Shown here in pieces: positions 2,788-62,660 of a stretch of DNA of 64,000 nucleotides. A program made the translations under genes and the position numbers. The notes beneath the pieces are model-generated. The model saw only the letters and a list, made by a program, of their open reading frames with translations, did no database searches and had not been told where the DNA came from. The stretch spans positions 124,001 to 188,000 of the forward strand of contig RSEE01000041.1 in NCBI GenBank assembly GCA_003971905.1, read 5' to 3'. Each line of letters begins with the position of its first letter. Position 1 is the stretch's first letter. This DNA is from Moniliella sp. 'wahieum' (Eukaryota).

Positions 2788-3310
2788 GGGCTCAGCGGAC
2801 AGGGCGCATGGGCGGGTGTGAGTGAGGGGCGTGGAGTGTTGAGTTGGTTGGCGGGGCGGGTGCCGGTGACAGTCATCGATCAGCATCACCCATGCGTGCC
2901 AGCGCGCGCCCATCACCAGCACTAGTTACTAGTTACTAGTCACGGCCTGCGCACCGCGCCACTCTCGCCCCTGCAACTTTCAGTCCGCCCGCCGTGGCTT
3001 GGCTGCCTGGTCTTACCTCAGCACGTGCCCCTGGGTCACCTGACTGGTCAGCAGCCATCGCCACTAGTCAGCGCTCAGCCTCTCAGCCATGTCCCAGCGC
3101 CATACTCGCGTCTGGCATGTCCATCAGCATTCCATCTCAATCGCAATCTCAATCCGCCTGTAACATTCTATAGGTACAGCCTACTAAGGACACTACCCTA
3201 GTAGATGCATCTGCTCACGCACTCTCCGCATTGCCCACCATGCATCATTACGCACACATCAGAGCCATGAGTCGATCATGCATCAGTCAAGCACCCCCCT
3301 GGGAGCATGC

Positions 3311-6012
3311 TTACACGGCCGACATGGCCGGCGCGGCAGTCAAGTCTGCAATGTCAAAGTCTTCAATCTTGCGTTGGCGCGTGCGCTCCGCCAAGTCCGG
3401 CCGGCCCAGGAGCTCGAGGACGACGCGGAAGTTTCCCACAGGCTGCGCGAGCCAGCCTCGTCGTCGGCTGCGCCGGCTGGGGAGGAGGACTGGGAGTGTT
3501 GGATGCTAAGGGCGGTGTAGAGGTGTTCGGCGGCATCCTGGTAGAGCTTGAGGTTGAGACACGAGATGGCCAAAGTTAAAGTGGCAGCGGGCAAAGTTAG
3601 GTTGGAGGTCCAACGCGGCATGGTAGTAGCCCAGCGCACGTTCATGTTGTCCTCCATTGGACAAGGTGGCACCCAGACGGTTGTGCAAGCCAATCGCCCG
3701 GCCGTACCGCCAGTGCCGAGCCAAAACAGTCTGCTGCCTTTTCGTACTCGGCCGTGGTGTTGAACAAAACCCCCAAGGCCATCTGAATATCTGCGTCGAC
3801 GCCACCGGCCTCGACGCCCTGCGCCTCGCCCCGCGCCCCAGCACGGACCAGCGCCAGCAGCGTCTCGATCAAGGCCGGATGCAACGAGTCGGCCGGGACC
3901 GAGTCGGGAAGGTGAGCTGCCACGGCGCCTGCGTACGTGGGCGAGTGACGAAGCCACAGCGCCAACGCTGTCCGGGCCTGGAACCGGTCGCCCTCATTGG
4001 TGTAGCTGACAGCGAGAGCAAGCCATGCGGCGCGCAAGTTGGGATCCAACTCGAGTGCCTTACGGAGCGCAGCAATCGCTTGTCCCTCCCGCTCGTTTTC
4101 TTGTTGTTTGACACCGAGCTCGAGCCAGGCGTCGGCCGAGTTCGGGTAAGCTTGCACCCGGGCCTCGGAAACCAACAGGCTTTCAACGCGCTGGGCCAAC
4201 AGGCCATGCTCCTCTGTCATCCAGTCCATCGTATCCAAGTGGTGCGCGCCATGGGTACGTGTCGTGTTGATTGCGTACGGATTGGAGGTAGCAAAGTGGT
4301 AGGCGGGAGCAGGGCGAAGGTTGCTCTTAAGCGTCTCGGTGGAAGCGGCGGTAGCAGTCTCTTGACGTTCTTGGTCCCATTGCTCCCACTGGTCTTGCAT
4401 CGCGTTCCATTCGCTTTCCTGGGACCCCATCGGCCCCGGCCAGCTTGAGAAGAGGAGAAGCCACGACCGACAAAGTCGCCTGCATCTTGCTCTTGCTCTT
4501 GCTCTTGCGCCTGCTGATTCGCGTGCTGCGCGGCCGGATGGAGGGGAGGGAAACTTGTTATAGCCTCGCGTCCAGCAGGAGGCACGTAGCCTTCAGACCA
4601 GGCACTGGACGCGCCAGGGATTTGGGTGCCCAACGACTGATACTTGGCCCATTCGTCCGCTTCAGCTTGTTCATGAGAGATACCTGCCGCGTCGGCTGCG
4701 TGGGACCTGGCCTTGTCCAACAGGGCGGATTGTTGAGCAAACGCAGCATCATCTTCGCGCATCCGGCAGCAATGTCCCCGCCATCCCCAAACTCCCCCCT
4801 TCAGCAGCAGAAGCTTGTCGCTCAAAGCTTCTTTCTCAGCACCGCGAGCGTCCTCGGCGGCAAATAAATCGCCCAGCTCGTCCCGGGCGGCATCTTGCCG
4901 AGCCAGGAGGTTGGTCAAGTTGGCCTGGGCCCGAGATGGGCCGTTGACCTTGTGGTGTCAACAAAGATTCGGTGGGGAGGTACTTTTCGGCATCCAGGGT
5001 GTGCTTGGACGTGGACGCCTGAACGGAAGAGGCGTCAACAATTTCATCCCCTTGGATCGTTGCCTGTCGATCGGCCAACTTGCGCATCAATCCCAAAAAG
5101 CCCGATTGGCGGAACTTGTCCGAGCCGTCGTGGGAGACAGTGTGAACCAAGTGCTCCGCCGCGCGTGCCAGCGCATCCTGGTCCGCCACACCGCCCCGCA
5201 CGGGTGGCCTCAGCTGCCTCGGGCTCGGCTTGCCTGAGGTGAGCATTGATGCGTGCTGGAGCAAAAACAGGGTCCTGCTCCACCGCCTGCACGCATCCTT
5301 GGTCAAGAGGTGGCCTAGATGCTGGGCTGCCACTTCGGCATTGGACTGGCTCTTGTCCGACTGGGCTGCCTTGTCCACCACCTGGAACGCTTCGGCCCAT
5401 GCAGCAGAGGGGGCAGTATTTGTTGTTGGTGTTGTTGTTGTGCTGCTGCTGGGAAGGGTGTGCATGGCATGCTGCATCCCTCCCCCCAGCATACTGGACC
5501 GCAGAAGCGGGGCTCGTTGGGTCATGGGCATCATGCCCATTGGGCGGTGGGCCATGTGGGTGGTGGGCATGGCGAATGAGAAATGTGGCCGACGCAGTCG
5601 CGGGGGCGGGGAGGAGGAAAGACTGGCTGGGAGAGAAAGTCGCGTGCCCAGGCGGGCTGGGGCCTGCCGAGGCTGGGCCTGGGCCTGGGCTGGGCCCGCG
5701 GGAGCTGAGAACAAGGCGGGGTTGAGCGGGGCCAGATCGGGTGGGCGCCGGCGGGGAGTGTGTCTGCCAGGGGCGCAAGGTCAAAGGCATGGATGGCGGG
5801 CGGGTGTGGGGGCGCAAAGGAGGCAGCGGCCGGTGGGTGCCAGCAGGAGCGGCGGGAGTGCGGAGGGTGGAGGAGCGCATGGACGCATGGGATGGGCCGG
5901 CGCCGGGGACAAAGCGGTCGCCCTGGTGGGAGCGGTCGGCGCCAAGGCCCTTGCCGAGGGTGGAGAGTGCGTTGGACGGCCCGCAGGACGCATCGCCGAC
6001 GAGGAAGGACAT
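3311..6012 (-). CDS. PEX5: Peroxisomal PTS1 receptor PEX5 (TPR protein), frameshifted
   Basis: N-terminus MSFLVGDASCGPSNAL has the conserved Cys. WxxxF-type motif AWAEAF. TPR region AWLELGVKQQENEREGQAIAALRKALELDP, DADIQMALGVLFNTTAEYEKAADCF, HNRLGATLSNGGQHERALGYYHAALDLQPNFARCHFN. C-terminus SLWET..VVLELLGRPDL; stop at 3311-3313. Confidence 0.93.
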
Positions 6013-6897
6013 GGTGGGCGGGGCGGGGAGACGGTGGGGCGGAGAGAAGAGGCGGGGAGGGTTACTAGTTACTCCAAGGGGATCTGAAATGGCGCGGCGG
6101 CTGACGCTCCGCAACGCCCGTTTCAGCCAAACTTTCACGCCGCCCGTCGCACCCCGGCGCGGCGCCTGTCTCCCCGCATCCCGCCCGGCCTGCCTGGCCT
6201 GCTTTGCCACCTGGGCGTAGCCACCTTCCGGGCCATCCAGCACCCGCTCCCGTTCGCCGCCATCCGCATCACCCCAGCCACCACCCATCCCTGGCACCCC
6301 ACCGCACCTCGCACCTCGCACCTCCCACCACACAAAGCAACACCCAGCACCACGCTCGCCTGACTTGCCGTCCAGCCTGTCCATGGCCAGCTAGCCAGCT
6401 GGCCCGCTGGTACTGATCCAGCGCCCAGGTGCCTCTCCCGGCCTTCAAACTTTCGCCAGCCACGGTGCGTGACATGTAGTGCGAGCAGGGCCGGGTAGGA
6501 TGTGCTGACCTTCGGACGCCTGCAGCCGACCCACAGTCACTAGTCAGCCACGCCGGCGGCGGCGGCGGGTGCTGTCGGCCCACCGTAAGGCCTGAGGCAA
6601 GAAACCAGAAACGGCACCTGGCTCTCTGCAATGTCCCTGGCCTACTGGCCTACAAACGAAATCCTAAGGTCTAAGGATAGGCCCAAGGCGCCATGCCGTC
6701 GAACTGATCTCCCAGTTCAACATGACCTAGTTGCTTTGTACGACTGTCGTCACGGCTGTGCGATCCGACAGGAATCCTGTACGGAAAGATGGTATTGGCA
6801 TCAAGCAGTGGGCGGCGCGGCACCATGTGTCCAACCCGTACTCGGGCGCATGGGACGGGGAGAACAGTGGCGGTGGTAGCATGTACATGCATCACAT

Positions 6898-8670: not shown

Positions 8671-10454
8671 GGCGGGTGCAGCAGACCAGCGCTGTGAAGA
8701 TGGTGGGGCGAGAGCAAAGCGTGTGCCCGGGCCGATGCAAACGGGGAAAATGTGTTGTCATGGGGGTGCGGTGAAGTAACAGGGACGGGGCCGTCGAGTA
8801 GGCCGGCCCGTCGAGCTGTCCGACAGCCTGGCTGCCCGCCGCCGTCGGCAGCAACGCTGCGACGCCCCCCGGCTATCTTTCCCACTTATCACCTGGCTCG
8901 ACCTAGGCTGCCGCTGCTGCCGCGTTCCCCCCACGGGGCCAGTCTCGACAGCCCCCCCGGCACAGGCACCAGCAGGCTCTCACTTGCACCTATCCAGAGG
9001 CAAGGTTGATGCGTGTAATGATTCCTGGCGCTGTCGCATGATCGACTTGATGAAGAAAGGTCACCGATTCGAATCCTTTTCTCCGACCCCTTCGTACCTC
9101 CTGTGGTCTTATTGGCCGGCCCTTTCCGTTCCCCCAGCGTATTTTTTCTGCACTGTAGTCCGGTTCTGCACTGTCGTCGTCTCTCTCAAGAAAAATAGTT
9201 GCTAGGCGCTGCAAAAGGCCGCAGGCACCAGAGCCGCCCCATCTGTGTACTAGTCACTAGTCACTAATCGTAGTAGCGTTTGCAAAACCTAAGACAGGGA
9301 CAAACTCTGAGCTTACCAGACAGCCTCGCCCAGCGCCCACAGCTTGCGTGTGCTGTCACATGTCAGTACTCATACGCAGTTTCTCAGTCAGTAGCTTGTG
9401 CCGAGAAAAGCCACAAGGGGTGGGTGTCGCCAATCGGTCCGCTATCCAACTTGCAAACTTTCCTGGAAAGACCAACAATAGAGAGAGAGAGAAGGCGGTT
9501 GAATTCAACGTTGATGGTGTATTGTATCGTGCATGGCCTAATACGGTTCCAGACTGCCACAGAAAGAGGTCATATTAGCGAGATGCCTGCCCTCTTCCAA
9601 AAAGATATCGAAGAAATGCACCGACAAGGGAAACAAGCTTGAAGCTTGAAGAGTTCAAGCTTGAGCCTGAACGTCCTGAACTACCGTCGACGGCTACTTT
9701 CAAAGGGCTTCTGGTTTGGCCAAATGAGACAGCCATCTCAAGAGGCAACGTTCAACACGGTCAACAGCGCTACCTGTTGAACTTCATCCAACCCAACGCA
9801 CTCTATCGCTGTTGCACGCTTAAGAGCGCCACGGTTGACATTGCTCTCGGCTTCTGGATTTAAACCAGCTCGACCTCTCGCAGGCTTTCCTCCCAACCCA
9901 AAAAGCCCACTCATCAATCAAGGTTGTGGACGGTGGGGGTGCACAGCTTCTGCCAACTCACTTATACGACCCGTGGGAGCTAGAATATGGTTTTAGAGGA
10001 TATGGTGTGGATGCAATGTGGTGAGAGGGGGGGGGGGGGAAGAAGAGGAATGTGTGTGCGTTTGCGAAAAAGTAAACAAAAGGGGGAGGGGGGAGCCAAA
10101 GTGCACTCCCCCAAGAGAGAGATGCATATCTGGCTCTCCTGGAGAGATGAAATCATACGAATGGCACGAGGTAGGGCCGGTTCAGGTGGAAATCGATAGA
10201 GGCAGTCTTGATGTGATCTCAGCCCATCAGACCGAAGTGGCGGAAACAGGGACATGTGATCCAGGTTGATTCGGTGTGCCTTTTGTCGTGTGTACGCTTT
10301 AGGTAGCGGTGCAGATGGAGACCAAAACGTCACACAGAATCAATGCCGTCCCAAAAGGTTTTATCTTTTCCAAAGCGGGTTCATGGCTGCACGCTTTCTT
10401 ACGAGAAGACCTGCTCGAAGCGATGTCAGTACTCAGTACACACACACAAATGAT

Positions 10455-11604: not shown

Positions 11605-12023
11605 CGACCTGCTCAAGCAGCGGGGGGTAGGTAAGCGGCCGGTGATGCTGCTGGGTGAAGGGGTTGACGCGTGGCGTCTGGATCGGTGGTGAACGATGAG
11701 ATTCTGAGATTAGATAGGATGGATATGATGCTTCCCACAATGGCCTGCGGTGCACCCTGGGGCTGCCACGCTTCACCAAGGGAGGGAGGCGGATGACGTC
11801 AGCACGGGCCGCAGCCAGCGTCGTTTGAGCAACGCAGCAGCAGCCAGCGATCAGCGATCAACACACTAATCATCCACCCATCCGTGCCTTGGACTGGCTG
11901 GGGGCATGTGACATGTGACACCGCCCAAACATCAATCCATCAATCACACCACCGCATCTCCTGTAGCCACTCCGCACCCCACTCGCGGCCCCACCACCAC
12001 CGCCCCCCCCCCCGGCCGTCGCC

Positions 12024-15724: not shown

Positions 15725-16417
15725 CTAGTTCTTTCCCTTATCTTATGGACGGCGGTAGGGCGGATACGGTTGACGGAAGCGCAGCGCAATACGGACGCGC
15801 TCAGAGGCAAGTGAACAGTGGCAAGCCAAGCGGCACGCCTGTCGTGTGGATCGGGTCAATACTTGGTACAAATTCTTCCAACTCACGCCTTCACGTTCCA
15901 GGTGTCTAGTGTATACATGTAGGTAGGCAGGTGGGAGGGGAGGGGAGAGGAGGGGAAGGGTTGGGAGGGAAGGGAATCGACTAGCATCTGCACCAATCAA
16001 TATCCAATCCGCCTTGCTCGAGGGCTGCGCAAGACGAAGTGGGGCTGGAGTCGGAACAGTAGTGAGGAGCGAGGAGTGAGCCTCACCGCACGGGCAAGCC
16101 AGCACGGCCACGCGGCACCTGGGCAAGGCGAACGGGGCCTCACACCGATCTCACCTCAAGCGTCAAACTTCGCTTCAAGCTTCAAGGCAGAGCCTCAGCT
16201 GGACGAACAGGTAGCTGCCTTTACGCCATACCGCGCATCGGTCCCATCCGGCCGGGCCGAGCCTGGGCGGGTGTTGCACCCCGATACGGCCAGAGAGGAG
16301 AGAGGAGGAAAGGAGGAAGGGGAGGAAGGTAGACCGTACCCAACGTCCACGTGCACCGCGGACAAGAGGACGTGGGTCGGAATCTCATGCAGCCTGTCGC
16401 GTCCCTAGGCCATGGTC

Positions 16418-16522: not shown

Positions 16523-16588
16523 CCCCTGTTCCCTTGTCCTGGTTGCCTGGTTGTCTGGCCGGGTCAGCGAAACGTGTACAACGCCGGA

Positions 16589-19369: not shown

Positions 19370-20614
19370 GGAGGCGAGGGGGCAGGCGGGGGGGGGGCAG
19401 AGAGGAGGAGGAGGCGGGGAGGAGGAGCGGAGGAGGAGGAGGAGGCGGACGCGGCAAGAGGCGAAGGCGCTGTGGAGGGTGGAGGCGTTGGCTTGAAATT
19501 GAAGGTTCTGCGCCTGCTATCGGTATTGAGTACGAGTCTCAGGCCTCATTAATCAAACCGGCCTGGCTGCCGCTGGGCGACGCTGGCTGCCTGCGCCCCC
19601 CTGCCGCCCCCGCCACTGGCCCCGTGCTGGCGGTGCGCGTGGCACGGGGGCAGCTGGCCCTGCTCGTTTCAAATTGCACGCGTGGCGGCGGGCAGCCCAG
19701 CGCTGTTGCATGCCACATGTCACACTCGCCAGCCAGATCCCAACAGATAGGAGCAACGCAGCAGAAGAACTGCGCCCCAGCGTGTCGCTTCCCTGCCTCC
19801 CTAGCCACTAGTCATTTCATTAATCACTGGCCTCAGCCACACCAACCCCTAGCACTACCTCTCCCCCCGCCCTCCCCCAGACGAAGATATATCCCTGGCC
19901 AGCCGCGTCAACTACCGTGCAAGTGACTCAAACTCAGCGTTCAAGTTCAACTCAAACAACACTCTTCTTCAACTTGGAGGTTTTGAGCACCTTGAGTATT
20001 ACTCAGTACGTCCACTACACACTGTCCCAGCCTGTCCCCCACTCCCGACAGTCCCGACTCTCCCTAGCACGCCTCGCCCCAAGAGAAGCCCTGAGAAGCC
20101 CCGCCCCCCCACCGCTGCGTCATGCATCGTACGTCACATGTCACGGGTCTTCCACATGCATCACCCTCCATCCTCATCCATCAGTCAGCAGCTGCGCCTG
20201 TGCCGATTGCATGTCGCTCGGTATCAGCATCACATACTTGCCACACAGCAGCGAGGTGTCTTTCGTTGCTGTGTCCTCGCTGCAATCCTTTCATTCTCTC
20301 TCCTTTTTTGTGCAGCAAGCGCAACAGCCACACATCCCAGGGCCCTCCTGGTGCCACGAGCGAGAGACGAAGGATATACGTCTCGTCTACTTGGCGTCAC
20401 GTTACAGCGACACAGGCCCCACTCACTGAGAGCAAAAGCGACCGTACCACCTCGAATACAACAGCATCAGTCAGGGAGAATATATAAACGCAGCTTCAAC
20501 CACAATCCTGTGCACTGTTGGTGGCCCTTCCAACAGAGCCGAGTACCAAGTACACCTCTCTCTTTCCCACCCCCACACACATACACCTTCTCTTCTCGCC
20601 AGCAGAGTATCATT

Positions 20615-25355: not shown

Positions 25356-26156
25356 GTCCCCTTGGCGGCAAAGGGAGAGGGCTCACGCTCACCGACCCTT
25401 TACTCAAAAGCTACACTGCACGATCCATCTTTTTGGCAATTGCATTCGACTATGCTCAGCAAACCCATGTTCCCCCGCAATATTCGACTTGCCCAACAAC
25501 AGGATCAATGAAGGAGATACACAGGCCAGTATAGTCAGTCCATTTGCGGAACTTCAACGTACACAACGTATTTGCTAAACCCCCACGCCTCACCTCTCTC
25601 TGATGTTCTTTTCGCACTTGGATCAAAAGCCGACCCTTGCCTTGAATTAATCACCCCTGGGCAGTCAGTTGTGTTGGATGGCGTATGGCGCGAGATGAAT
25701 AAATACAGTCCGCATAGGATCGTTGCATGGGGCGCGCAGCGTGGCCTTTTTGTCCTTTCCTCTACGATCGACTCGGTCTCTCGCTTACTGCTCTGCTCTT
25801 CGATCCACTCGTAACTCGTTCCCGCTCACCATTGCGACGGGCGCCACTCGGACCTAGTCCGATCAAAGGAGTGGTGAAACGATACCCGTTGAAGAGAAGG
25901 GCGACGCGCGACGCGTCCAACGCGACGCCTCGACCCCCCACTCGACCGGTGACCGGTGTCCCTCGCAGGCAGCCAATCCTGGTGGCTCCATTGAAATGTT
26001 CATGCGTCGCGTCGCGCAGCTAGGGTTGGGGCGCTTGGACGCGTCTGAGCCGCGGGGGCACCATTCCCTCCATCCGAGTGCTTGCCACCAGATTCGATTC
26101 CACGCCATCCCAGCGCCCCATCCGGCTGCTGTCCTACACCTCCCCTCTCCCTCTCC

Positions 26157-29621: not shown

Positions 29622-29937
29622 AGCCAGTAAGGCCCCATCATCGATATCATCCCGACTGGCTTGTGATGGATGCGGTGAGCCCGCATTTTGTCTGCCACCC
29701 CCTGGGTCGCAAGTAAGAAGGGCTATTATCTCTTCCCCAACTACCATTGGCCCGTGCTTTGAAGCTGTACAGTCTGCTCGTGAAGCTATACAATCCTTTT
29801 AGTGTGAATATATAAGGAGCTTGTCCGGTAGTATTCACGAGCGTCGTGACGCGTGACGGGTGACGGGTGGTTGGGTGACGCGGGCTGCGTGCATTGCACG
29901 CGTTACGATAAGCTCCATGCCTTAACGTCAATCACAA

Positions 29938-33659: not shown

Positions 33660-36600
33660 CGGGGTTACCGGTTACCGGTTACCGCAGTAAGCTTTTCTCA
33701 TCTACATCAACGGAGACACCGATGTAAATGTAAAAGTTGGTAGTTGCGAAGTGCCAAGGACAACCACACAAGCGCACTCTGAGTAACAGAGAGTATTGAG
33801 TACTGAGTGAGCAGTAGCACAAAGCCCAAAACGGAGAGAGGCGCTGCACGCGGAGAGCGCTGCAATATGTGGCTGAGTACTGAGTGTGATAATACACAGG
33901 AATACTGTGGGGTCACCGGATCATGTATGATGCATGATGCGGGAATGACCAAAAAAGTCAAAAGCTATAGTAGCCTTGCAAATCTATCGGATGCATGCAT
34001 GGCATGGGCCGTATGGCACCGATGCTGGGTTTCGCTAGCTATTCAGATATGAGATACCAACAGACCTTAGGGGGGGCCGGAGGCCTCCCCTGTCACGACG
34101 GCCAATTGTTAGCGATGCTGTGGCGATGGGGGGAAAAAGCGGGATATGGTATTTCAACAGAGAGCTATAAGAAAAGTTATACCTATGGGCCATGATAGGC
34201 TCCGGGACCGGAAGCCAGTGGAAGCTCGTGGAATTAAGGTCCGGGATGCACTGCCCCGATATGACTGTGTGTGTATCGGCCCACGTGTCACTAAAGGCCG
34301 ATGGGCTCTATTAGACCACACTGATGGTGGTCAACGCCTGCTTCTCTCATCTCACGATCATCATCGAGACATTGTTTTTCCACCTCTTTTTCCGCATTCT
34401 TCTATCGATCTCTTTTCTTCACTCGGCTCCACCGGGTGGCTATGAATATTGAATATTGAATACTGAGTTACTGAGAGCAGTGTGGCCTGCACACTATACG
34501 CCTACACTCCCATTCGAATTAACGTCGTCTCTCGTCTCCTGCTTGTCACCCCATCAGGTGGAAGAAGAAGCTTGGAAACTGGGAGCTTTTAGTGTGACAA
34601 GTGAGCATGTGAAAAATCTGAGAGAGGCTTTAAGCTTTATGTAGCCACGGTTCAGTCACGGTGAGCGGCTGTGCTCAGCTATCGTAACATTAACACAACA
34701 TTTATAACGTTTATCCTATTACAATCGCAAATGGCATGTGTGGAAGACGGGCGAATGTGTGGTGATCAATGGAAGTCGATGAACAATGCGATCGGGCTGG
34801 GCGCTGAAGCCAACTACGTGTGCTAGGGCGGAGTAATAAGTTTTGCTCCAGCGAATGTGTGAGCAAGACCACAGTGCGAGAGAACAGAGTGTGTTGGGTG
34901 TGTTGAAAACGGAGTGTGTTGGGTGTGTTAAACTGATTGTACGTATATCGTGGCAGCCAAGTCGTGTTTTGGGGGGAGGGGTCAAACAGTTCGATGCTCG
35001 TGCGATCTGTCCCGTTCTTTTGGCCATCAGTACTCAGTCCCCAGGGAGAAAGTGAAGCTACTGAGTACTGAAGCTTGAAGCTTCAAGCAGGAGGCTAGCT
35101 TGGAAACCGAAACAGTAAAGCCTGTACCCGGTAAAACCGTGGAAACACACCACAAGTATACTATAACCGCGGTTCCCGGTTACTAGGTACCCCTACGGCC
35201 TATATACTACTTGACTAGAAGCTTAAAGCTAAGCATAGCCTTCTTAAGACGCCAGTCACAACATCACTGGGCTCCTCAAGCATCACTTGCACCACTAGTC
35301 ACTAGCAGTAGCCACACTAGTCACTAGGCACTATAGTCACTATAGTCACTGTGGTCACTTCAAGCATTTTAATCGTTAGTACTTGGGGAATTATTAATTG
35401 ATCCTATAACTAGTGACACAGGTGACATGTGACAGTTACTAGTCACTAGTAGTCACTAGTCACTCTAGTCACTAGCTAGTCACTGTGGCTGACTTATATA
35501 CTGGCGTGAAGCGTATAAGCGTAAGTACGTGAGTGCCTGAGAAGCAGATCCGGTCACATGTCACATGTCACATGTCGCATGCTGCATATAAGGTGCATGA
35601 GGCCTGAGGATCTGAGAGATGTCGATGATTGAGGCCATGTCACGTTGCATGTGATAGCGGCGGGGAAGCTACGGCCTGCTACGACAGGGCGCAGCGGCTT
35701 GGGGATATAGAAAAAGCAAGAAAGCGTATATAATTTGCGCACCGTCCATTGTGGTAGTATATATCGATTGCGAATTATCGATTATCGATTATCGCGATTG
35801 CCATCATGCATGCCATCTGTCATTCTATCATGGATCATACCAGTTTCTACTAGCCGATATGTCATGATGCATGATGGGAAGATGTCCCCTGGTGTCCCAA
35901 TTGGTGCCAATGCTTCAATCTCTTATTCAAGTAAATATCTGAAAATGCTCTCCTGCCCCAGCGAGCTGCCTAGTATCCCAATGCATTGCAGTCTCGGTGG
36001 AAGCATATATATGGAGAGTAAGGCACTATAGTAACTGTAGTTCTAAGGTCCACTGAGCGCGGTGAGGCCGGTGAGGCTCTTAGCTTCATCGTTCGGCAGG
36101 CGCCCAACACGCTCGGTCTAATCTGATATCTGAGGAGGGAGAACGAGAGAAGTTTATTGGCGCATCAGCCGTCAACAGCGCGTCAGTACTCAGTGCATCA
36201 GTTGCATTAGCATCCTCTCAGCACCACAAGGTCCTCTGAGTTCTGAGAGGCTCACAGGCATGAGTCCATTTTGGTGGTTGGTGTCACATCGATGCCTTCA
36301 CATGTCAATACCATGTCAACTGTAAGTCAAGCATTCTGGTTCTAGCAGGTCCTATAGCCCCTCTCCGTGCTTCTCACCCTCTCGTAATCGTCAATGATCG
36401 ATTATCTCCCCATGCACCATGGGGGCATCATTCATCTGCGGCTTTGTGGGTCCACATGTGATGAATGTGACATCACATGTGGCCATTTCATCGATTTCAT
36501 CGACCATCATCGTATTTCCCAACCAACACACCCTACCGCACCCTACCGTACCCCTCAGGAGGCTTTTGGTTTTGTTGTGCAACCCGAAAGCCAAAAAGCC

Positions 36601-37000
36601 GGCCTTTGTTGCCACAACCAATACCCAACGGCTGATCGGCGCGGTACGTGCGTTACGCGTTACGCCGGATGTGTTACGTGTTCCTAGTTCCTATTAGTTC
36701 CTAGCTTTACTCCGCAGGTAACCGGTAACCGGTAACCGGACTGAAGAGAAGCTAGAAGGCTTGAAGCTTGAGGCGCTCACCGAGGCTCCAAGGACTAGGA
36801 GGACTGACAGTACTGAGTGACAGTACTGACATGTGACATGTGACTTGTTGTGTGACGCATGTGACGGGTGTGACTAGTGCCATCCTCCCTTCTAGCTTCT
36901 CCAGACATCCCACCACTCTGTCGAGAGAACTGTGCGGTATAATCGTAATCAATAATCGATAATCGATAATCCCATCTCACAGATCTCAGGCCCGCCTTTC
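33660..37000. repeat. Non-coding region dense in chained A...T palindromes with 1-nt spacers
   Basis: Examples: ACCGGT-T-ACCGGT 33667, AATATT-G-AATATT 34445, AGTACT-G-AAGCTT-G-AAGCTT 35064, ACATGT-C x3 35556, ATCGAT-T-ATCGAT 35777, ACCGGT-A-ACCGGT 36721. No convincing ORF. Confidence 0.85.
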
Positions 37001-40329: not shown

Positions 40330-40549
40330 ACGCGATGCAAGAACCGACTCGCTGCCCACTGGTAGGCGGGGCGAGGACTTAGGCCGCCTAGGGCACAAGC
40401 ACCCGCCTTGACCCCTACTTTGACCCAGCATGCCGGGGGAAGCGTCCCAGGGTACCAGGTCGCGCCAAGGGATCCACAACACTTGACCCCATTACCGGTT
40501 AGTATATGAGTTGCTTACCACATTCAGTGTTCTTGAAATGCTAACCCTC

Positions 40550-43500
40550 AAATGCCTGTTCGCCATATTTCCAGATGCCATACCAATGTGATGATTAGGG
40601 CACCCTGGCCACGTTGGCAAACAAGGACCAAGTATCCCCCCCCCCCTATTAGTGGGCAAAAGACCCGTGCCCTTACTGTCTTTGTGCGGCACTTGTATGC
40701 TCTTCCCGTTTCTTCCCTTCTATCTTCCCCCCTATGCACCACTTGACGATCAGCAGCGCGCCTTGGGCGGGCAAACCACTGCAGGTACGTGCGCAGCACA
40801 ATACAAGGATGTAGATAAGGGTTGAACGTTGACGGCCGACAACGGAGGAGCAGCAGAGGCAAAGTAGGGTATGGAGCTGCCATGGCTTCTTTCTGTGAGG
40901 TAGGAAGCAAGTTAGGAAGAAGCAGCATAGGGCCGCAAGTAATCCCCAATCCACAGGTTGCCCCGTGCTGTGCCGAGACACAGGACCCCCTGTGCCTCGT
41001 CCAGACAAATCTCCGCCATGATATCCGAGCGGCTTGGCGGGCCGAAAGTGGACGAGGTGCGAGGACGACGGGGCGGGCCCAAAGGCGGGAGAAAGGAGAT
41101 GGTAGAAGGAAGCGAGCTAGCGGGGGCACTAGCCGTGGAGACGCTAGGGTAGAGAGGCGCAGGCAGCGAAGGTGGAGGCGGAGGGGCGAGGGGAAGAGAA
41201 GAGGGTAAACTAGCTGGGGTGGCAGGTACAGTAGCAGGGGGGACGGAAGAGGGAGAGAAGGCGAAGGGAGGGCGTCGGAGGAGGAAAACGTAGTTGGACT
41301 AGAAGGATGCCGTCCTGCCCCGCCCCCCCGGCTTCGAGGGGTGGGCGCGGCCGCGCAGGCGGGTCCGGGACGGTGAATCCGGTCCTGTGAGGAGCAGAGT
41401 CGCGCGCGCCTTCCCTGCGATGAAGAGGGAGTCGACTGGTGGGCCCGAGCAGGCGCTCGAGCCGCCTCAAGTCGGCAGAAGAGGCGAGGGTTTCGGCACT
41501 GGGCAGGCCGACGTCGGGCGTAGGACGAAGCGGAAGGAGGTGGGCGGCCGAAGCGGCGTGAAGGGCACGTGCCTGTGTGTGCAGCGAACCTTCCTCTCTG
41601 CGTTCCAGGTCGGGGAGGTAGGAGCTGAGGGAACCACTGACCGAAGCGACAGACATTGGGGTAGAGGCGCGGGTAGAAACAGGGTCGTCGACACTTTGGG
41701 AGCCCGCCGCACTTTCGTTCTCCCACCGTGCTGACTTCTCCTCTTCTGCCCAAGAGCGGCGAGTCAAAAGCTGAACACAGTACACAGGTGGAATACCTCC
41801 AATCATGGGTCCCATGATAACTGCCCGTCGTCCGGTCGCACCAATGCTCGTGCTGCTTACCCGATCCACCTCGGCGCGAGAAAGAAGGACAGGTGGCCAG
41901 TCGTACGGGAACAACAGGGGCTCTGACTCGTCTACTCCGTCGTGGACGTCGGTCCGATTCTGTTGTTCTGGCAAGCCACGCAAAGCGTACTGCGATACGG
42001 CGCGGCTGTCGGCAACTTGGATTACAATCTCCTGTGGCCGCGAGCGACGAAGCGACGGCGGGGACGGCGAAGAGATTGGTATGCGTATGACGGGCGGTGC
42101 TCCATTTCCTCCGAAAAGGTAGCAGTGAGGGGCCGGCTGGACTCAGCAAAGGGCAAGGGTACACAAGCTAAGAGCTGACCCGGTTCAGGGGGAGGGGATG
42201 TCCCTCCTCGTCCTCCAGGTCAAAGGGGAAACGCATGTCCTCCCCTCCCAAGGGGGGCCAAGGGGTAGAAGCAGGTGTGGGTAGAGGCACGCGAGAAGGA
42301 AGTGGATACCGACTCGGTATAGACCGAACGGCGACGGGCAGGAATCCCCCGCTCATCCCACCCAGTGTCGGAGGAACTTCGGCTTCGGTCGTCCAGGTCG
42401 GGCAAGAGGAAGACCTGGAGCAGTCCCGAATCCGAAACACAGACAACCGTATGTCCAGCAGCTTGAGCGCGTTGACTGCATGTCTCCTTCGTTGGGTGAT
42501 GGATGCGCTGCGCCCTGACGCCCACTCAAACACCTGCACATCGCCATTGTACACCGCCACCGCTGCACAGCGTCAGCATTACCCTCACATGAGAGGCGGG
42601 GGGAGTGAATGGGAAGGGGACGTACCGACTCGTGGTCCGCGGAGGAGATGGCACGTGCAATAAACCGGTCTCCATAGGGGTTGGACAAGGGGTAGTCCGC
42701 CACGCTGTGGCCATTGGCCACATCCACCACGTAGATCATGCAGCACATGCTTGACACACAGCTACCCACTGCAATCACCAGTCTATTGTCCTCGTTGAGC
42801 TCTGCGTCGAGGCACAGAATTTCCACGCCGGTATCAATGCCCGCCAAGAGGCGCCTTCCCTTCCACTCGTCGGTGGCGGAGCCTTGACGGGTGCGGAGGG
42901 GGGACGGGTGCTCACTGTCCTCGGCCCTACGGGAGCTGGAAGAGCGGAGCGAGCGGCGTGGCTGCGGCGATCGCTCACTGTGCAGCCGCAGTTCTGCCGC
43001 TTCGGTAGAATACAGCAGGGAGTCCGCCACAGCGACTGTGCGGCCTGGTCAGAGGAAGAGGGCGGTGCGGCCAGAGGAGCGGACAAGTCCCAGATCCGGA
43101 TCCAGTTGTCGACCGAGGCGGTGAGGACGAGCAGTCCCTGAGGGCCAGGCAGGAGCTTCATACAGGTGATGCGGTCGATGTGGGCGCGAATGCGTTGGAC
43201 GGCGAGTGGCTCAGATCCGTACATCTCCCAGCGGTGGGCAAGTTGCTGGGCCCGCAGCACTTGGACCATAAGCGCGTGCTGCAGTGGCGTGCGCGCGGGC
43301 AATGGGGTGGCCGTAGAGGTGGGTGGCGAGGGGGATGGCGAGGTTTTGGCGAAGTGACTGGCGAGGCGGTCGTGCCGGTAGCGTCTTCGGGAGGAAAAGG
43401 ACCTGAGCAGGGCGGGACGGGCACGCCAGAATCGACGAGCGTGTCGGCGAGAGACATCCAGAGATGGGCGTCGGAAGCAATGGAGTGCCAGTAACGACAG

Positions 43501-46590: not shown

Positions 46591-49500
46591 CAGACGCAGA
46601 AAGAGCAGGTGGGGGCGCAACGGGGGAGGGGATGGGAGAAAGCAAGAGCGGAAGCATATATACGCGCCTGCGGGCATGCATGATGCATGACGCGGCAGCT
46701 GCGCAGAGGCATACGTCTGGCCACTGCATGACGGCCTCCGTGCGTGTCGAGCATGCGCATTATGCACACTGGTACTGAGCATGGTGCGCCGTGCTCCACC
46801 GCACTGCGCGTGCCGGGGGCCGTGCGTCGCACTCGCGGCCACCGCGGCCGAAGCTCGCTCGGTCGCTCGCACAGCGCTCGCCCGGGCAGCGCCGACACTG
46901 GCGCCGTGGCTGCTCACACGAGCACCGCGAGCAGCTGGGGGAACGGCACAGGGCCAGTCGAGGATGGGAGCGGGGATCTCCCGCCGTCACGCATCACGCG
47001 TCCTGCCTTGCAGGGCACCTGCCCTGCCTGCGCAGTGCTGCCCCCGCAGGCCCCCGCCTGCTGCTGTCCTGGCCAAACCTCGCTCCGGTGCATCGCCACC
47101 CGGCAGGGCTCGGCACAACAGGCAGGCGCATGTGTGCCTGTCCAATGAGCGTCTAGTACAATCCACAACGTCTGCCGAGCCAACGTAATGGGAAGCAGCA
47201 ACCCTGTCCTGCGCGCACCCCAAAAGCAGAGAACGGAAGCAGCGGGCGCGCACCGCGCGCACAGTATCTGTTCGAAAAGTACCGCCAGATGCGAACAACC
47301 AAATGCCCATGGCGCATGGTTGCCAGCACAGTCGTTGTCAATTTCTCTCGCTCGTCTGTCCTGCTTAAGGCCTAAACGCTCAGACTCTGTTGCGGTGGAA
47401 CTGCCTCCCTTTCACGCCCTCACGCCTCACGCCTCACGCCCTCTTGTCAGGGCGAGTCCCAGTCGGGAAATCGCACATTGCCATGATTGCATGGTTGCAA
47501 CCGGGTCTCTTCGCGCCGATCTTCATGCATATCATCTCAAGCATATCACCCATACCAAAGAGAGTTACCCACAGGACGACAACACTCAATTCCAGCACAC
47601 AGCGTCCAACTAGACCTCTTTGCCACCCATCTCCTCCTCCATCTCCCGATGTACCCCAGGCAAAGCAACACCCCTCCCTCCAGCCAAACCACGATGGTCG
47701 AAAGGAGGTCCCCGGATCCTGGTCCAATCGTCACCACAGTGCTCCCCCTCATATCTGCAGGGGTGACCTGATAATTATGATCGAGGTGGAGGGAGGGACT
47801 GCCGTCGCACACCAAATCGCTATGCGCTGTCCGGCTGGGATCAATGAAAAAGTCTACAAGTGAGGAGGGTGGAGCTAAGCGTGGAGCGATAGTTTTTGCC
47901 TGGTCCGCCGATAAGGGCAGGGTGTGTATGACGAGACGTTGCGTCGATATGGTGGTGGAATGGGGAATGAACCGAAGTGGGTACTGTCGAATCAGAGAAG
48001 AGAATCAAGACGGCAAGCCGATAACAGCCGTGATTCTACTGCAAAATGGGAAGTCCGCAATCGTGTCATTCCAACAGGCAAACTATAGGTTCGCGCACAG
48101 GTATATACTTAGAGGGGAGACGGTACTAGTACTATAGGTCCGGGTGGCAGTTTCCCTTTTTCAACGCACACAGGATATGGCCAGCAGGTGACGTTTCTGA
48201 TACTGTGTAAGAAAGATGTAGTGTGCGTGTTCCATCAATTGATTCTTGTGGTATGAGCGAGTGCAATCGGCTGGCTGCCGTAGGCAATCGAAGGTTATGG
48301 AGAGAAGGCGTGAGGTAAGTCTTCCCCCGCAAAGCAGCGGAGACGTAAAGACGGATTGGCGAGTGACGGACTCGCGCACAGTGGGCAGTATCTTGGCGAT
48401 GACCACATCCTGATCACTGTCTCGTCCCCGCACAAGAAACACAAAGAAGAGGCACGGAAAAGCGAGTCGCGCAGGCCCGACGCGTCGTGTCAGCCATAGC
48501 GGTTCGTCAGGTCGCCACAGCCTCATAAAGAGCTCATACCCCCCCGGGGTTGTTGCACAGGGGCCCTTGGACACCGAGTTTTGGGCATGTTATCGTCAAA
48601 CCGCCTTGAGGCGGGTGAGTCCCTCGAAGGAGAACATGGGACGAGGCGTATAGGATCCTCTGCTCTTGTGTGACGGTAGAATGGAGGGGTTTTATCTAAG
48701 CAACAAAACAGGGGCCTAGTACGCGGTTGACACAGCAGCGTGTCTTGGTGTTGCTCCTGGTTGGTGAGCATGGTCACAGCCTTACTGCGCCGTTGATCCA
48801 CCTCACGTATAGTGTCCCTCTCCCCTGCGGCACTTATTGAGAGGCGCGACTCCAGGGATGCCAGAAGTGCTCTTCAGGGTCCATGGCGATGCTAGAGGAG
48901 TTCTTCTTGTGAGGACGGGTAACTCCGGTAACTACCACTGCCTGTACGCTGTCCTTGTATTTGCGAGCGCAGGCGGGGTATGGCCAGGAAGGATCAGGCT
49001 GATCCCCAGGAAGCCAACGTCCAACCCTGTCCACCCCCCGTCGGGATCGATGGCCAACGTGAAAGTTGCAAATGGGCGGGGCAAATGCGGCGACAGAAGG
49101 CGGGGGCTGCTCGGCCCCGCGCGGCGCCGCCAAGCAGAGAGCCGGGTGGAGCACTGGTGGGGCCCAATCCTCCTCGAATACAACGCCCCTTCTTTGCCGG
49201 CCCCATATCGTAATCGCCAATCATTAATCACAAATCCATTCATTCAAACCCATTAGCCTCGCCCCTCCCTGGCCTCATATCGATCGTAGTGGCAGGCGGC
49301 ATGTCTGACGCCTAATGTGGGGTCTGGCTTATCTATGTGCGCTGTCCATATGTGCCAAAAGCCACACATGTGCCGGCCTCCTACTTTTGGCTCCCCCGCC
49401 ATTATATAAAACCACTGGCCAACACACTGCAGTTCAGGATTCCCCCCCCGCCCTCCGCACCTACCATTCTCAAGTGACGCCAGTCATCGTCGTCAACGGC

Positions 49501-50592: not shown

Positions 50593-51192
50593 GTTTTTTT
50601 GCTGGGCATATCCGAAACAGACAGACATCTAATGCACACTTCTTCAGGCTCCTCGTACACCTTTGCCTTGTACCAAGTTCTCGCCATTCCCCACCCCCTT
50701 TGTTTTGTTTTCCTTGGACCTGGTCCAAGGTGTTTTAAACTGCATGCCCACACTGCGTTCCCAAAACAGTTTGTGGCTCAACGCTATCAATGTGGAGCTT
50801 CTCACGGAGAGGGAGAACCGACAGCCCACGTGCCTAGTATGACGAAAAGGTATGCCCCGGGCTGTAGATGCTGAAGCCCGAACCTCAGGCCTCAGGCTAA
50901 GGCCCCAGGGCGTGATGTTTTAACTCCATGGTTTCTGCGCTCCCGTTCTCTCCCGGCTTTGCATAGTGAAACCCCAAAGCTAATAACCGCTTCTAAACCG
51001 TACCAGATAGATGTAAGCTATGAGGGAAGGTCGGTCGGGCATCACATAGACGTTTTTCTTTCCCTTTACACATCGTTCCCATTTGATGAGGTTTAGCGAT
51101 TATCAAGATCATCGCATCCATTGAAAATGGATTTTTGAGGATCTTAACGACCATACGACAAAGGTGGCTGGCAAGACTAGAACGGTGTGAAT

Positions 51193-59320: not shown

Positions 59321-61022
59321 GAGAAAGTGTCGGGTGAAGCTGCTGGGGATATGGCACGGATATTTTTGAGTCGCAGGTGAGAGAGGTCCGCTTTAAAAGG
59401 CGAAGGGGAGGGCCGCGACTATGGATACCCGCACTTTGGTTCTTGCTGTCCTAATGGGAGGGAGTCAGAGTGTCAATGATACTATAGTCAAGTGACTGGT
59501 GAGATCTGTGATCAAAAGCAGTATACATGTGGCTCGCCACTTTACCCCACCAACCCAGAAGCCTATCTGCACCTGCTCCACAGGGCCGCTGCGGCGCCGC
59601 ATCCTAGCTGCCCCCCTGCTGCCTCAGCCGGCCAGCGTTGGCTGCCACATGTCTCGTGGCACACATCTCACACAGCCGCCGTGGCCCAGTCGCAGAGACT
59701 GCAGTTTCAACCCACCGTCACACGTCACATGTCACAAATCATGCATCGTGACATCTGTCGTCCGTCGCACCCGTTCGTCCTATACTATTCCAATGAGCTT
59801 TACATGTTCGACTTCTCAGATCTCAGGCCTCAAGCGTCAAGCTTCTAGGCCCTCAAGGGATGAGGCACCCCTCATCGATGTTCAATCTCATCGACTTCAC
59901 CATCCAACCGTGCCTGAGCGAGATCGTGCATCTTTGGTTTGGGAACTGTGGGTTCAACAACTCTCAACGATTAACTCCCACACGTCTTCGAGCTTGGCGC
60001 GTTCCCTCAAGTTCATAAACGTGTTCAACTAATAACATGTTCATCATAACTGTCTCATCGATCATCTCTCTCAGCTATCGATTATCCACACCAACTGCGA
60101 TGGAGATCGGAGGCGCAATAAGAAGGGGGGTCAAAATGCATATGCTTTCCCACAAATTGATGGTTCCGAGGAATTATATGGGTAGGGTAAGAGGGATTGC
60201 ATAGTAATAGTTGGCCAGGCCAGGTACACACAATGTGTCAGTGAACCATGCACACACACACACAAAATGATCTGCATTCCACAGAAGAACTCATAAGGGA
60301 AGCTCCTCCCATCAATGAGACCACGTCATCATCTCCCCAGGGCTATACCAGCACCATCCAGCGGGGGGAGTGCGCCAACGGGGGGTGATGGGCATGGCTC
60401 AGCGCTCAAACACTATAGCTAGACATGTTATTCACACGCGTGCGTTTTCAGAAGGACTGCAATGAGTCTTGGAGGCGCAGACGTGGATGCGGTCAGGGCC
60501 AGTCAGGCCGAGGCATGGAAGGGCATGGCGCAGCAGCAGGGGAGGCCCCGGATAGCGTTTCATTGTTTCAGGAGTACATAGCACTGCCATCGGTGATTGT
60601 GGATCCCATCGATGACACGATGACGTGGGCCTGGAGCAGCGCTGCGCAAGACTGCTCCCCCGCGGGACCCGCGGGACGAGAGAGGGGCAGTGCGTTGCTG
60701 GGCTGGCAGCCCCACTGCTCACTGACGCCGTGCCGGCAGGGCGGAAGGCTCTCGTGGCGCCCCGCGCCCCGCAGCCCCCAGTGGGCCTCAGCGCCTCAGC
60801 AGGCCTCAGGCCTTGGGCCTCCAGCGCAAGCACGCCAGCCAGCCAAGCCCATTTTGCCGCGCTGCCTGTTCCACCGGTCAGCCTCGGCCTAGCGCCCAAC
60901 CAGCCCTCTGTCGTCCGGCGAAAACGCGTCGGTCTCTCGTTCGCACCCTCATCCCCCCATCGTCCTGCCTCCCACCCCTCCCTCTTGTCTTCTCCTGCCT
61001 GCCTGTCCACCCCTCCCCCGTC

Positions 61023-61585
61023 ATGTCGTCTGTCCAGCTCCCCTCAGCTCAAGTCGGTCCACGCTAAGATTGAGTACTACGTGGCTCAGATCGATAAGGA
61101 GGTGCGTCGTGCCCAACTGATCAAACACCGCGCTCTTGCTCTTTTGCACCATACTGACCGTCTGTCCACCTACCTCAGCTGGAGAAGTACCCGTTGCTCG
61201 TCAAGTGCGAGGCGACGACCCACGTGCCCAAGGCGTATGGCACGATTGGTATCTTCTTCCTCCTGGTCACTGCCATCTTTTTTAACATTGCCGCCAACTT
61301 CTTCACCACCGTTCTGGGATTTGCTCTGCCGGCCTACTTTTCTCTCCAGGCGATCGAGTCGCCGGCCAAGGACGACGATGTGCAGTGGCTTACCTACTGG
61401 GTCTCGTTTGGCTTCCTTACCATTCTCGAGTCCTTTTCTTCGCTGATCCTGCACTGGGTCCCATTCTACTACACTTTCATGGCCCTTATTCTCGTCTGGC
61501 TGATGCTTCCCCAGACCCAAGGGGCCAAGGTGCTGTACACCAAGGTACTGGTACCATCTTCTTCCACAAGAAGCCCGTCGCCTAA
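61023..61585 (+). CDS. YOP1: ER-shaping protein of the TB2/DP1/HVA22 (REEP) family
   Basis: YYVAQIDKE/LEKYPLL..E..THVPKAY, GFALPAYFSLQAIESPAKDDDVQWLTYWV..GFL, WVPFYY, WLMLPQTQGAKVLY. One intron at about 61102-61178. Confidence 0.94.
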
Positions 61586-62660
61586 GTTGACCGGGTCGTC
61601 AAAGATTTTTGTGGGGCCTCTTTGACCTGACTGTGGACTGGTCCGTTTCCGTCTCTCGAGCAGCGTCAGGTACAACCAGTGGGGTGTGTCACATGTCACC
61701 TGCGATGCCCTTTCGAGGACGAAGCGGTCTTGTGCGGCTCACTCTCATCCTGTCTCATGTCTGCTATATCGTCCCTCACGCTGGCGGCGGCTGCCGCGGG
61801 CAAATGCCACTCTTCTCTTCAACTTGCTTCTCTTTCTCCTCATCCTGATTCCCCTTCCGCTGCCTCGACTCCCCCTCAGCAATCGAGATATTGATCGGTT
61901 CTCTCCCTGGTTTACATGTAGCCGACCTGGGAGTGGTTCCGGCTGGGTCAGTTAGGTGTTGCACTGGAGGGCATAGGCTGGGCCCTGTTTTGAAAAGTGC
62001 CCAAGGATTGATTTCAGGGAGATATAACCCACAGCAGCACGTGACCGCGTGACCCCTGTTGCGACAAATCCGCTGCTATTCTTAAGGTTCAAGCTGGACG
62101 TTGAAGCTTGAAGCTAGTACGTTGAAGCTTGTAAAAGCTTTGAAATTTGAGGGCCCAGAGGCTGCAAACGTTAAACGTTAGATTTTAAATCCGCAACCCG
62201 CCTGCAGCGCCTGCAGCCACGGACACCCAGGAACAATTGAAATCGGTGGGGTCCAAGACACGGATTTAACCCGGTTGCACTTCTCCGCGCGAAGAGGCGC
62301 AGCAATTACTGCTGTTATTCGACGTCTTACGCGTTACGCCTTATAGAGGGCTCAACCGGAGATGAACTCAGTCTGAGATCTGAGTGTACTCTCCTCGAGT
62401 CACTATGGCTAGTCACTAGTCAAGAGGAAAGGGCTGAAAAAAGCCTGCCCGTGACGCGCGTGACGGGGCGACCGGCCTTGGTTGTTTAATGAGACCGGTC
62501 GGTGACCGAGTCGGTCCCCTAACATTTTTCGCCGGGCTTAGCAATGTCCGACGGTGTGACTGAGGTTGAAGGAGGTTTGAGGCAACCGAAAAAATCCATT
62601 CGCATCGGCCACCAACTTGTTGCTCCTTGCCCGCCGCTCCCCTCCTCATCCCTTCTGACC

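Follow-up and report, generated by a model that had tools for sequence, protein, structure and literature searches.

Seven-base-pair T-N-A arrays with palindromic fillers in the non-coding DNA of Moniliella sp. 'wahieum'

The stretch analysed here (the window) comprises 64,000 nucleotides of contig RSEE01000041.1 from Moniliella sp. 'wahieum' (assembly GCA_003971905.1, positions 124,001 to 188,000 of the forward strand), has a G+C content of 58.3%, and carries ordinary fungal genes with short introns, as judged from Pfam scans of its open reading frames (ORFs) and from Rfam for tRNAs. Between these genes lie short arrays with a period of 7 bp, in which the trinucleotide T-N-A stands twice, with the same N, around a 4-bp palindrome, so that each unit reads as a 6-bp palindrome beginning with A and ending with T (A....T) plus one further base. 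Scored as a strict 10-mer, T-N-A / 4-bp palindrome / T-N-A with the same N (TNA-pal4-TNA), the motif has 66 hits that merge into 59 loci, with period-7 runs of 10–24 bp (mode 12–13 bp). These loci are found upstream of genes, between tandem genes, between convergent genes and in gene-less DNA, and none of the 59 falls in a predicted exon, where exons are those of a crude self-trained codon model that called 25% of the window exon, on strands consistent with the Pfam-supported genes. We classify the arrays as footprint-like micro-insertions. The TNA-pal4-TNA period-7 runs are listed here by window position, hexameric core and N, with no strand assigned to any row:

2873..2882: ATCGAT, N = C
2921..2940: three copies of ACTAGT, N = T, 20 bp
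3068..3079: AGCGCT, N = C
3275..3285: ATGCAT, N = C
6061..6073: ACTAGT, N = T
6535..6546: ACTAGT, N = C
9249..9266: ACTAGT, N = C, 2.6 copies
9354..9372: chain TCA-CATG-TCA-GTAC-TCA, two cores, same N
9635..9651: AAGCTT, N = G
10426..10439: AGTACT, N = C
11905..11920: ACATGT, N = G
16172..16186: AAGCTT, N = C
19538..19555: chain TCA-GGCC-TCA-TTAA-TCA, two cores, same N
19817..19826: ATTAAT, N = C
20133..20144: ACATGT, N = C
29845..29858: ACGCGT, N = G
33207..33219: AGCGCT, N = C
33389..33400: ATGCAT, N = G
33663..33684: ACCGGT, N = T, 3 copies
33797..33808: AGTACT, N = G
33873..33885: AGTACT, N = G
33927..33940: ATGCAT, N = G
34443..34462: AATATT, N = G
34627..34639: AAGCTT, N = T
35027..35038: AGTACT, N = C
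35059..35083: chain TGA-GTAC-TGA-AGCT-TGA-AGCT, different cores, same N
35422..35434: ACATGT, N = G
35450..35464: ACTAGT, N = C, within a degenerate ACTAGT-C tract (35293-35484)
35553..35576: ACATGT, N = C, 3.4 copies, the longest perfect run (24 bp)
35598..35609: AGGCCT, N = G
35774..35794: ATCGAT, N = T, 3 copies
35863..35876: ATGCAT, N = G
36183..36194: AGTACT, N = C
36298..36307: ACATGT, N = C
36650..36665: ACGCGT, N = T
36717..36739: ACCGGT, N = A, 3 copies
36759..36771: AAGCTT, N = G
36827..36844: ACATGT, N = G
36952..36971: ATCGAT, N = A
40492..40501: ACCGGT, N = T, between convergent genes
40821..40832: AACGTT, N = G, between convergent genes
46676..46690: ATGCAT, N = G
47366..47375: AGGCCT, N = A
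49219..49230: ATTAAT, N = C
50883..50897: AGGCCT, N = C
59724..59736: ACATGT, N = C
59814..59832: chain TCA-GATC-TCA-GGCC-TCA, different cores, same N
60055..60066: ATCGAT, N = C
60397..60408: AGCGCT, N = C
61687..61699: ACATGT, N = C
62101..62115: AAGCTT, N = G
62139..62150: AAATTT, N = G
62327..62339: ACGCGT, N = T
62372..62384: AGATCT, N = G
62409..62422: ACTAGT, N = C

Eight loci show the other phase, in which a palindromic tetramer stands twice around one T-N-A and the outer T-N-A is missing, and two 9-bp analogues are also present, again with no strand assigned:

25944..25958: CCGG-TGA-CCGG, other phase
35220, 35295, 35317, 35439, 35465, 60802 and 62168: starts of the remaining other-phase loci
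35329..35350: 9-bp analogue, 8-bp palindrome ACTATAGT + C, 2.4 copies
60659..60677: 9-bp analogue, CCCGCGGG + A, not of the A....T type

With 8 such loci against 59 loci (66 hits) in the principal phase, an inverse model that duplicates the tetramer and treats T-N-A as the filler is the less supported of the two.

Statistically, the pattern is real, overwhelmingly so, and stronger than first described. When perfect tandem repeats are counted from a length of two copies and one base upwards, period 7 (at least 15 bp) accounts for 30 arrays against 1.05 expected as the mean of 20 dinucleotide shuffles, period 8 for 2 against 0.25, and period 9 for 6 against 0.05. Of the 30 period-7 arrays, 21 are built from a 6-bp palindrome and one further base (19 A....T, 2 C....G), a form expected of about 11% of random heptamers by our own calculation, and two of the six period-9 arrays have a unit made of an 8-bp palindrome plus one base. 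For A....T palindromes paired across a single base, same-core pairs number 18 against 0.02 and different-core pairs 6 against 0.44, with neither count matched in any of 100 shuffles, and in the same shuffles palindrome pairs with spacers of 0 and 2–5 bases, or with other end bases, stand at expectation. An earlier sequence-only reading of the window, which had proposed precisely this combination of A....T ends and single-base spacers, is borne out by these counts, and all 21 of the hexamers it had placed at particular coordinates are where it put them.

The strict 10-mer gives the sharpest contrast, with its 66 hits against 2.1 expected (in 1-kb block shuffles the mean was 2.0 and the maximum 8 among 200). 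The form with different N on the two sides occurs 9 times against 5.2, the C-, G- and T-type analogues are not enriched (10 against 6.6, 8 against 7.4 and 0 against 2.0), and no total period other than 7 shows enrichment. Same-N pairs of T-N-A peak at a spacing of 7 (111 against 35, z = 12.3), where the filler is a perfect palindrome in 66 of the 111 pairs, and show no excess at spacings of 3, 4, 5, 8 and 10 (TNATNA, spacing 3, 38 against 35.6), from which it follows that the filler is rigidly 4 nt long. Separately, a minor excess of same-N pairs appears at spacing 9 (65 against 35, z = 5.5; for example at 35414, 36853, 45852 and 62452), many of them direct repeats of GTGAC or GGTGA 4 nt apart, with a fully palindromic 6-nt filler in only three. 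Even-length palindromes with arms of at least 5, such as inverted pairs of arrays would form, are not in excess (66 against 64). Single-copy odd palindromes of the form xyTnAy'x' occur 117 times against 130 and 46 times against 54.5, while their tandem forms occur 51 times against 0.6 and 18 against 0.1, and the 5-mers GTSAC, CTSAG and similar are likewise not enriched, so there is no free-standing motif. An assembly or sequencing artefact deserves next to no credence, since no known artefact produces 59 short (10–24 bp) unique runs with 15 different cores strictly outside predicted exons.

Anatomically, the cores are diverse and the junction is constrained. Across the 59 loci, ACATGT is found 9 times, AGTACT 7, ACTAGT 6, AAGCTT 6, ATGCAT 5, AGGCCT 5 and ATCGAT 4, with 1–3 occurrences of each of the others; the first filler base is C at 21 loci, G at 17, T at 12 and A at 9; and N is C at 28, G at 20, T at 8 and A at 3. 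The earlier count of 14 of the 16 possible A....T cores was, if anything, too low for the strict motif, which yields 15 (ATTAAT had been missed, and only ATATAT is absent), although that count had rested partly on single instances, with AGATCT, AGCGCT, AAATTT, AGGCCT and AACGTT not enriched as single hexamers. Similarly, the proposed T-N-A junction and 7-bp period stand, now as a fixed period with direct duplication of the same N, while the freedom of N does not, C or G filling it in 48 of 59 loci (T-S-A). At 11 places one unit follows directly on another, in register and with the same N; the cores are identical at 7 of them and unrelated at 4 (CATG/GTAC, GGCC/TTAA, GTAC/AGCT and GATC/GGCC), where 0.0 are expected. 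Run ends cluster at 0 or 2 nt past T-N-A (by increasing distance, left 22, 8, 15, 8, 2, 3, 1; right 18, 11, 18, 6, 3, 3, 0). The palindrome is prolonged by 2 nt into the outer flank on one side at 35 loci, on both sides at 12 and on neither at 12, which is about half of all sides. Decayed copies, in which one core pair is broken, occur 32 times against 12.4 expected, compared with 66 against 2.1 for perfect copies; the resulting ratio of excesses, about 0.31, is near the 0.4 that neutral birth and decay would give by our own calculation.

This anatomy bears directly on slippage, the most familiar source of short tandem repeats. On that explanation the arrays would be heptamer microsatellites whose palindrome-plus-one units expand best because they fold back on themselves, the T-N-A preference being a quirk of the lineage. 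The seven identical neighbour pairs and the arrays of up to 3.4 copies agree with it, as does the prevalence of period 7 over periods 8–15 whatever the unit, the remaining 9 of the 30 period-7 arrays being non-palindromic. It sits badly with several other features: the four neighbour pairs with unrelated cores but the same N, whose copies differ by more than point changes; the majority of loci with less than two full copies (36 of 59 have runs of 10–13 bp); run ends at fixed phases where an even spread is expected; the lack of a copy-number tail, no run exceeding 24 bp while an 8-bp repeat in the same window reaches 14.5 copies; and the lack of any palindrome bias in the period-5 and period-6 arrays. 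It also leaves unexplained the first duplication and the A....T type of 41 of the 45 palindromic runs. We therefore regard slippage as an improbable origin of the arrays. The sequence-only reading had held them to be neither plain microsatellites nor a single factor site, a position that the unrelated neighbours and the unenriched single-copy 7-mers and 5-mers uphold.

The loci are spread unevenly, and their placement introduces a possible regulatory role. The densest cluster is a gene-less hot spot whose setting, together with the other genes of the window, is as follows:

26.7-29.5 kb, plus strand: DNA polymerase delta
31763..32815, minus strand: dead Ty3/Tf2-like retrotransposon integrase remnant (SH3_Tf2-1, E = 1.3e-12; rve, E = 2e-4, below the Pfam cut-off)
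33207..36971, no strand assigned: hot spot, gene-less, 3.8 kb, G+C 48–52%, home to 24 of the 59 loci; motif density 7.75 hits per kb, compared with about 0.6 in the remainder of the window
about 37.3-40.3 kb: Zn2Cys6 transcription-factor gene, flanking the hot spot
further genes in the window: ERG2; SKN1/KRE6; a PX-domain protein; an F-box protein; a polysaccharide deacetylase; TCTP; HVA22; a pectinesterase; Zn2Cys6/Fungal_trans factors, two in the window as a whole

The hot spot (33.2–37.0 kb) is thus bordered by the integrase remnant (31.8–32.8 kb) on one side and the Zn2Cys6 gene on the other. It contains no ORF of at least 150 amino acids and no Pfam match, and none of the three Rfam matches in the window, all tRNAs, lies within it. 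Upstream of the integrase remnant, the minus strand has no detectable reverse transcriptase or RNase H, even when stops are read through as X; the integrase part alone emerges from this read-through, and the hot spot is not recognisable as the rest of the retrotransposon. Two segments of the hot spot, 33663-35794 and 36650-36971, carry cores in roughly similar order (ACCGGT, AGTACT/AAGCTT, ACATGT, ATCGAT), and three recurring cores have complementary N in the two segments (T/A, C/G and T/A), a pattern that a simple duplication, direct or inverted, does not account for and that could have arisen by chance.

Functional cis-elements maintained by selection, whether bound by dimeric factors or acting as structural signals in promoters or untranslated regions (UTRs), would be expected to show some relation to genes, and a few observations run in that direction. 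Each T-N-A is a stop codon on one strand, and the strand on which it reads TGA or TAA agrees with that of the nearest predicted exon at 25 loci and disagrees at 10 outside the hot spot (p = 0.017, uncorrected for clustering), or 14:4 where both neighbouring genes share a strand. The hot spot lies upstream of the Zn2Cys6 gene, and a composite 17-mer with two different cores in register, TGTCACATGTCAGTACT, recurs at 9354 (9354-9380) and, reverse-complemented, at 36812 (36812-36838). Selection for a signal is harder to reconcile with the interchangeability of 15 cores, with single-copy 7-mers and 5-mers at expectation, with a decay ratio that looks neutral, with loci that lie not only upstream of genes but also in convergent 3' regions, and with a density that is highest beside a dead retroelement where no Rfam family is found. 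On balance, we consider a cis-regulatory function very unlikely, and the structural promoter code that had been offered as an alternative is weakened by the same peak of density in gene-less DNA beside a dead retroelement and by the loci between convergent genes. As an aside, the orientation of the arrays, read as the TGA/TAA strand, is uniform over whole regions (2873-10439 and 59724-60408).

We favour the view that the arrays are non-functional mutational scars of some kind, with a probability of about 0.6–0.65. It draws on three observations: the single-copy motif is not enriched, decayed copies are present near the neutral rate, and four of the 11 neighbouring pairs combine unrelated cores with a shared N. 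Neither slippage nor point mutation yields unrelated cores with the same N, whereas successive 7-bp additions at a duplicated T-N-A can, and the excess of same-N forms without an excess of different-N forms indicates direct duplication as opposed to a mirror image. We infer that the units are insertions and that they are neutral. Mechanistically, the elementary event would be a gain of exactly 7 bp at one T-N-A trinucleotide, which would leave T-N-A in two copies with the same N around a 4-bp self-complementary filler. Further events at either copy could then build arrays of two or three units and chains of different cores, and ordinary slippage might add copies once two units exist, as the identical neighbours suggest. 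Scars of this kind would accumulate wherever selection permits.

Several variants of this scheme were tried and rejected. A mirror-image fold-back that includes N would give complementary N, and the different-N form is not in excess. This form of the cut and fold-back process put forward in the sequence-only reading is rejected; the reading's core idea of iterative insertion at a 3-nt T-N-A site fits the anatomy. A 5-bp duplication with hairpin-derived P nucleotides of variable length is refuted by the enrichment of total period 7 alone, and simple fill-in of a 3-nt overhang by the count of TNATNA. Carriage on a dispersed repeat or a miniature inverted-repeat transposable element (MITE) is rejected by repeat and inverted-repeat searches of the window, and pre-existing odd palindromes as favoured targets receive no support, single copies being neither enriched nor clearly depleted.

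As to what might write such scars, we tentatively propose, at somewhat less than even odds, that they are excision footprints of cut-and-paste transposons that duplicate T-N-A, or products of a nuclease derived from such elements. The source would be repeated insertion and excision of PHIS-type elements, or the activity of the derived nuclease. The proposal is favoured by layout, because a 3-bp duplication, an inverted filler of 2+2 nt and a second 3-bp duplication make up a canonical footprint, and T-N-A is a PHIS target. Passages of PMC4423477 describe DNA transposon excision as leaving breaks with small 3' overhangs from the inverted-repeat ends, and passages of PMC4482050 give the PHIS target duplications as TWA for PIF/Harbinger, C|TNA|G with any N for NuwaII, ANT for Pangu and CWG for NuwaI, and place PHIS elements, NuwaII included, in fungi. 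The link to PIF/Harbinger and its TWA targets drawn in the sequence-only reading has to be loosened on this evidence, as the junction is mostly T-S-A (48 of 59) and neither a TNA-flanked inverted-repeat element nor, among the scanned ORFs of at least 120 amino acids, a DNA transposase family was found in the window; what keeps it alive is the fungal occurrence of the TNA-duplicating NuwaII group (passages of PMC4482050).

A number of observations weigh against a footprint origin. A single family should leave footprints with a single filler, and the 59 loci show 15, none of them dominant; the first filler base is spread over all four nucleotides, with C in the lead, where PIF/Harbinger ends usually begin with A or G (passages of PMC4482050). 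The window yielded no donor: there are 14 inverted-repeat pairs flanked by equal 3-bp sequences, against 12.4 expected, the sole T-N-A-flanked pair consists of two arrays and is not an element, and no DNA transposase family appears in a Pfam search of ORFs of at least 120 amino acids (194 of 206 plus 7 more, the five that overlap polymerase delta being left out). A plain footprint predicts that the flank will prolong the palindrome by 2 nt on about 6% of sides, and about half do so, which suggests templating from the flank. Filler length is invariant, whereas footprints usually vary, and neutral scars predict neither the bias of N towards C and G nor the 25:10 strand bias.

Some of these difficulties are eased if the breaks were made and repaired without a transposon. 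In this explanation a host nuclease or a recurrent lesion would cut at T-N-A, with T-S-A preferred, and end joining would double the 3-nt overhang and add a 4-nt self-complementary filler, formed, for instance, by a hairpin or by templated copying of the flanking dinucleotide and its complement; every cut would thus lengthen the site by 7 bp. The same-N duplication, the chains of different cores and the spacing of 7 follow from it just as well as from transposon footprints; fifteen different fillers are what one would expect if the local sequence supplies them; on about half of sides the filler half is identical with the dinucleotide next to it in the flank, which fits flank templating better than transposon ends; and a window without a donor element poses no problem. 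It encounters its own obstacles in the 12 of 59 loci, and the second core of chains such as 9354-9372, that match neither flank, in the unenriched TNATNA that a simple 3-nt fill-in would give, and in the invariant filler length, where hairpin-opening models predict a variable one. Moreover, we know of no pathway with a rigid 4-nt palindromic filler, and none was found in our literature search. We judge transposon-free break repair unlikely, and return to T-N-A-duplicating elements as the source on which we would tentatively settle.

Several known systems invite comparison, cut-and-paste footprints among them. The canonical Tc1/mariner footprint is TA, end nucleotides and TA. The arrays share with such footprints a duplicated target around a few inverted nucleotides, the non-coding location and the possibility of stacking at one site, but differ in their 15 fillers, rigid length, palindrome-prolonging flanks at half of sides and up to three units per site. 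Hairpin-ended breaks give rise to P nucleotides at V(D)J coding joints and in hAT/Transib-type excision, typically of about 2 nt. There too, zero-loop palindromes arise beside a duplicated target, but P nucleotides vary in length and come from the target itself, whereas here the total is fixed at 7 and no filler derives from T-N-A. Trapped topoisomerase II causes small de novo duplications of 2–4 bp, similar in that fill-in of a staggered break and end joining yield a short tandem duplication, and dissimilar in that they are not necessarily palindromic and lack both T-N-A and the 7-bp period. Heptamer tandem repeats are reportedly known from bacteria, as the short tandemly repeated repetitive (STRR) sequences of cyanobacteria and as the G-rich heptamers of Xanthomonas and Nostoc ascribed to Rehm et al. 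2015; they resemble the present arrays in being period-7, intergenic and hairpin-capable, yet are long, single-unit, often inverted pairs and prokaryotic, whereas the window arrays have 1.5–3.4 units, many cores, direct repeats and a constant T-N-A junction in a fungus. PHIS elements agree with the arrays in the 3-bp duplication reading T-N-A with any N and in hosts that include fungi (passages of PMC4482050), but the C...G flank preferred by NuwaII (cores AG..CT) occurs at only 17 of 59 loci, and classical PIF/Harbinger elements (TWA) have A or T as N, where N in the arrays is mostly C or G. Excision of mPing is often precise according to passages of PMC4423477, and for the PHIS superfamily no account of footprints with a 4-nt palindrome came to light. 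Nor did a full-text literature search, which left many subscription papers outside its reach, turn up any account of arrays like these, whether from fungi or from other eukaryotes.

Beyond this fungus, a scan of metagenome contigs for three ACTAGT units returned at least 122 loci. Most of those sampled are single arrays and bacterial, with ordinary bacterial-type enzyme families in 6 of 16 scanned ORFs, and among the matches listed there is neither a relative nor a case of the A....T-only, many-core pattern. Four loci on three or four contigs (L063:1-8664; L004:1-11792, with L005 on the same contig; L025:1-8540; L060:1-10358) are dense in palindrome-plus-one heptamer arrays, have a G+C content of 36–50%, and include A-N-T, T-N-A, C-N-G and G-N-C junctions in arrays of up to about 6 copies; in L004, N is A or T at all nine C-N-G junctions. 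No Pfam family is matched by the ORFs that separate the arrays on these contigs, and a 1132-amino-acid ORF of L025 looks eukaryotic and transposon-like to a language model, whose features are the basis of that tentative assignment. Palindrome-plus-one heptamers are thus not unique to this fungus. The occurrence of all four junction types in arrays of about six copies in other organisms speaks for slippage, and these dense arrays keep both slippage and a multi-family PHIS origin live.

The identity of a polymerase delta exon reaches 84% with Jaminaea rosea, 82% with Parajaminaea and with Tilletia, and 95% and 91% with two further proteins; the top named match of the pectinesterase is Acaromyces ingoldii, with 59% identity. 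These matches place the fungus within the Ustilaginomycotina, close to the Exobasidiomycetes. The 8-bp repeat mentioned above, CCCTAGTT (14.5 copies, 16418-16534), and a 13-bp repeat, CTTTCCCGGTTGT (5.9 copies, 15647-15723), are far longer than any heptamer array. Window-wide, and unrelated to the arrays, TATATA is over-represented (14 against 1.4), and four hexamers are depleted (TCTAGA 0 against 8.4, TCCGGA 5 against 19, CCTAGG 4 against 14, GGGCCC 23 against 41).

Biologically, the import of the arrays depends on what they are. Should they be functional, they would constitute a new kind of sequence-independent signal defined by symmetry. If they are scars, as we favour, then extrapolation from about one locus per kb implies that the genome records thousands of events of a single break-and-repair or transposon reaction. 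For a fungal group in which few transposons are known, such a record would be a natural dataset from which to learn how targets are chosen and how repair turns out, and the reaction would be a source of 7-bp indels shaping promoters and UTRs. Microsatellite surveys usually end at 6-bp units, so structures with a period of 7 would have been overlooked. Further, we entertain the less likely, but far from negligible, idea of an undescribed and possibly still active mutational process that writes a precise 7-bp signature, T-S-A doubled around a new 4-bp palindrome. Were this true, it would leave roughly one mark in each kb of non-coding DNA and several in each kb of junk DNA, its agent would be an uncharacterised enzyme, for example a PHIS-type transposase that has been domesticated or a nuclease that forms hairpins, and the A-N-T, C-W-G and G-N-C heptamer arrays of eukaryote-like metagenome contigs would be the products of sister enzymes, members of a general and so far unnoticed class of eukaryotic indel signatures.

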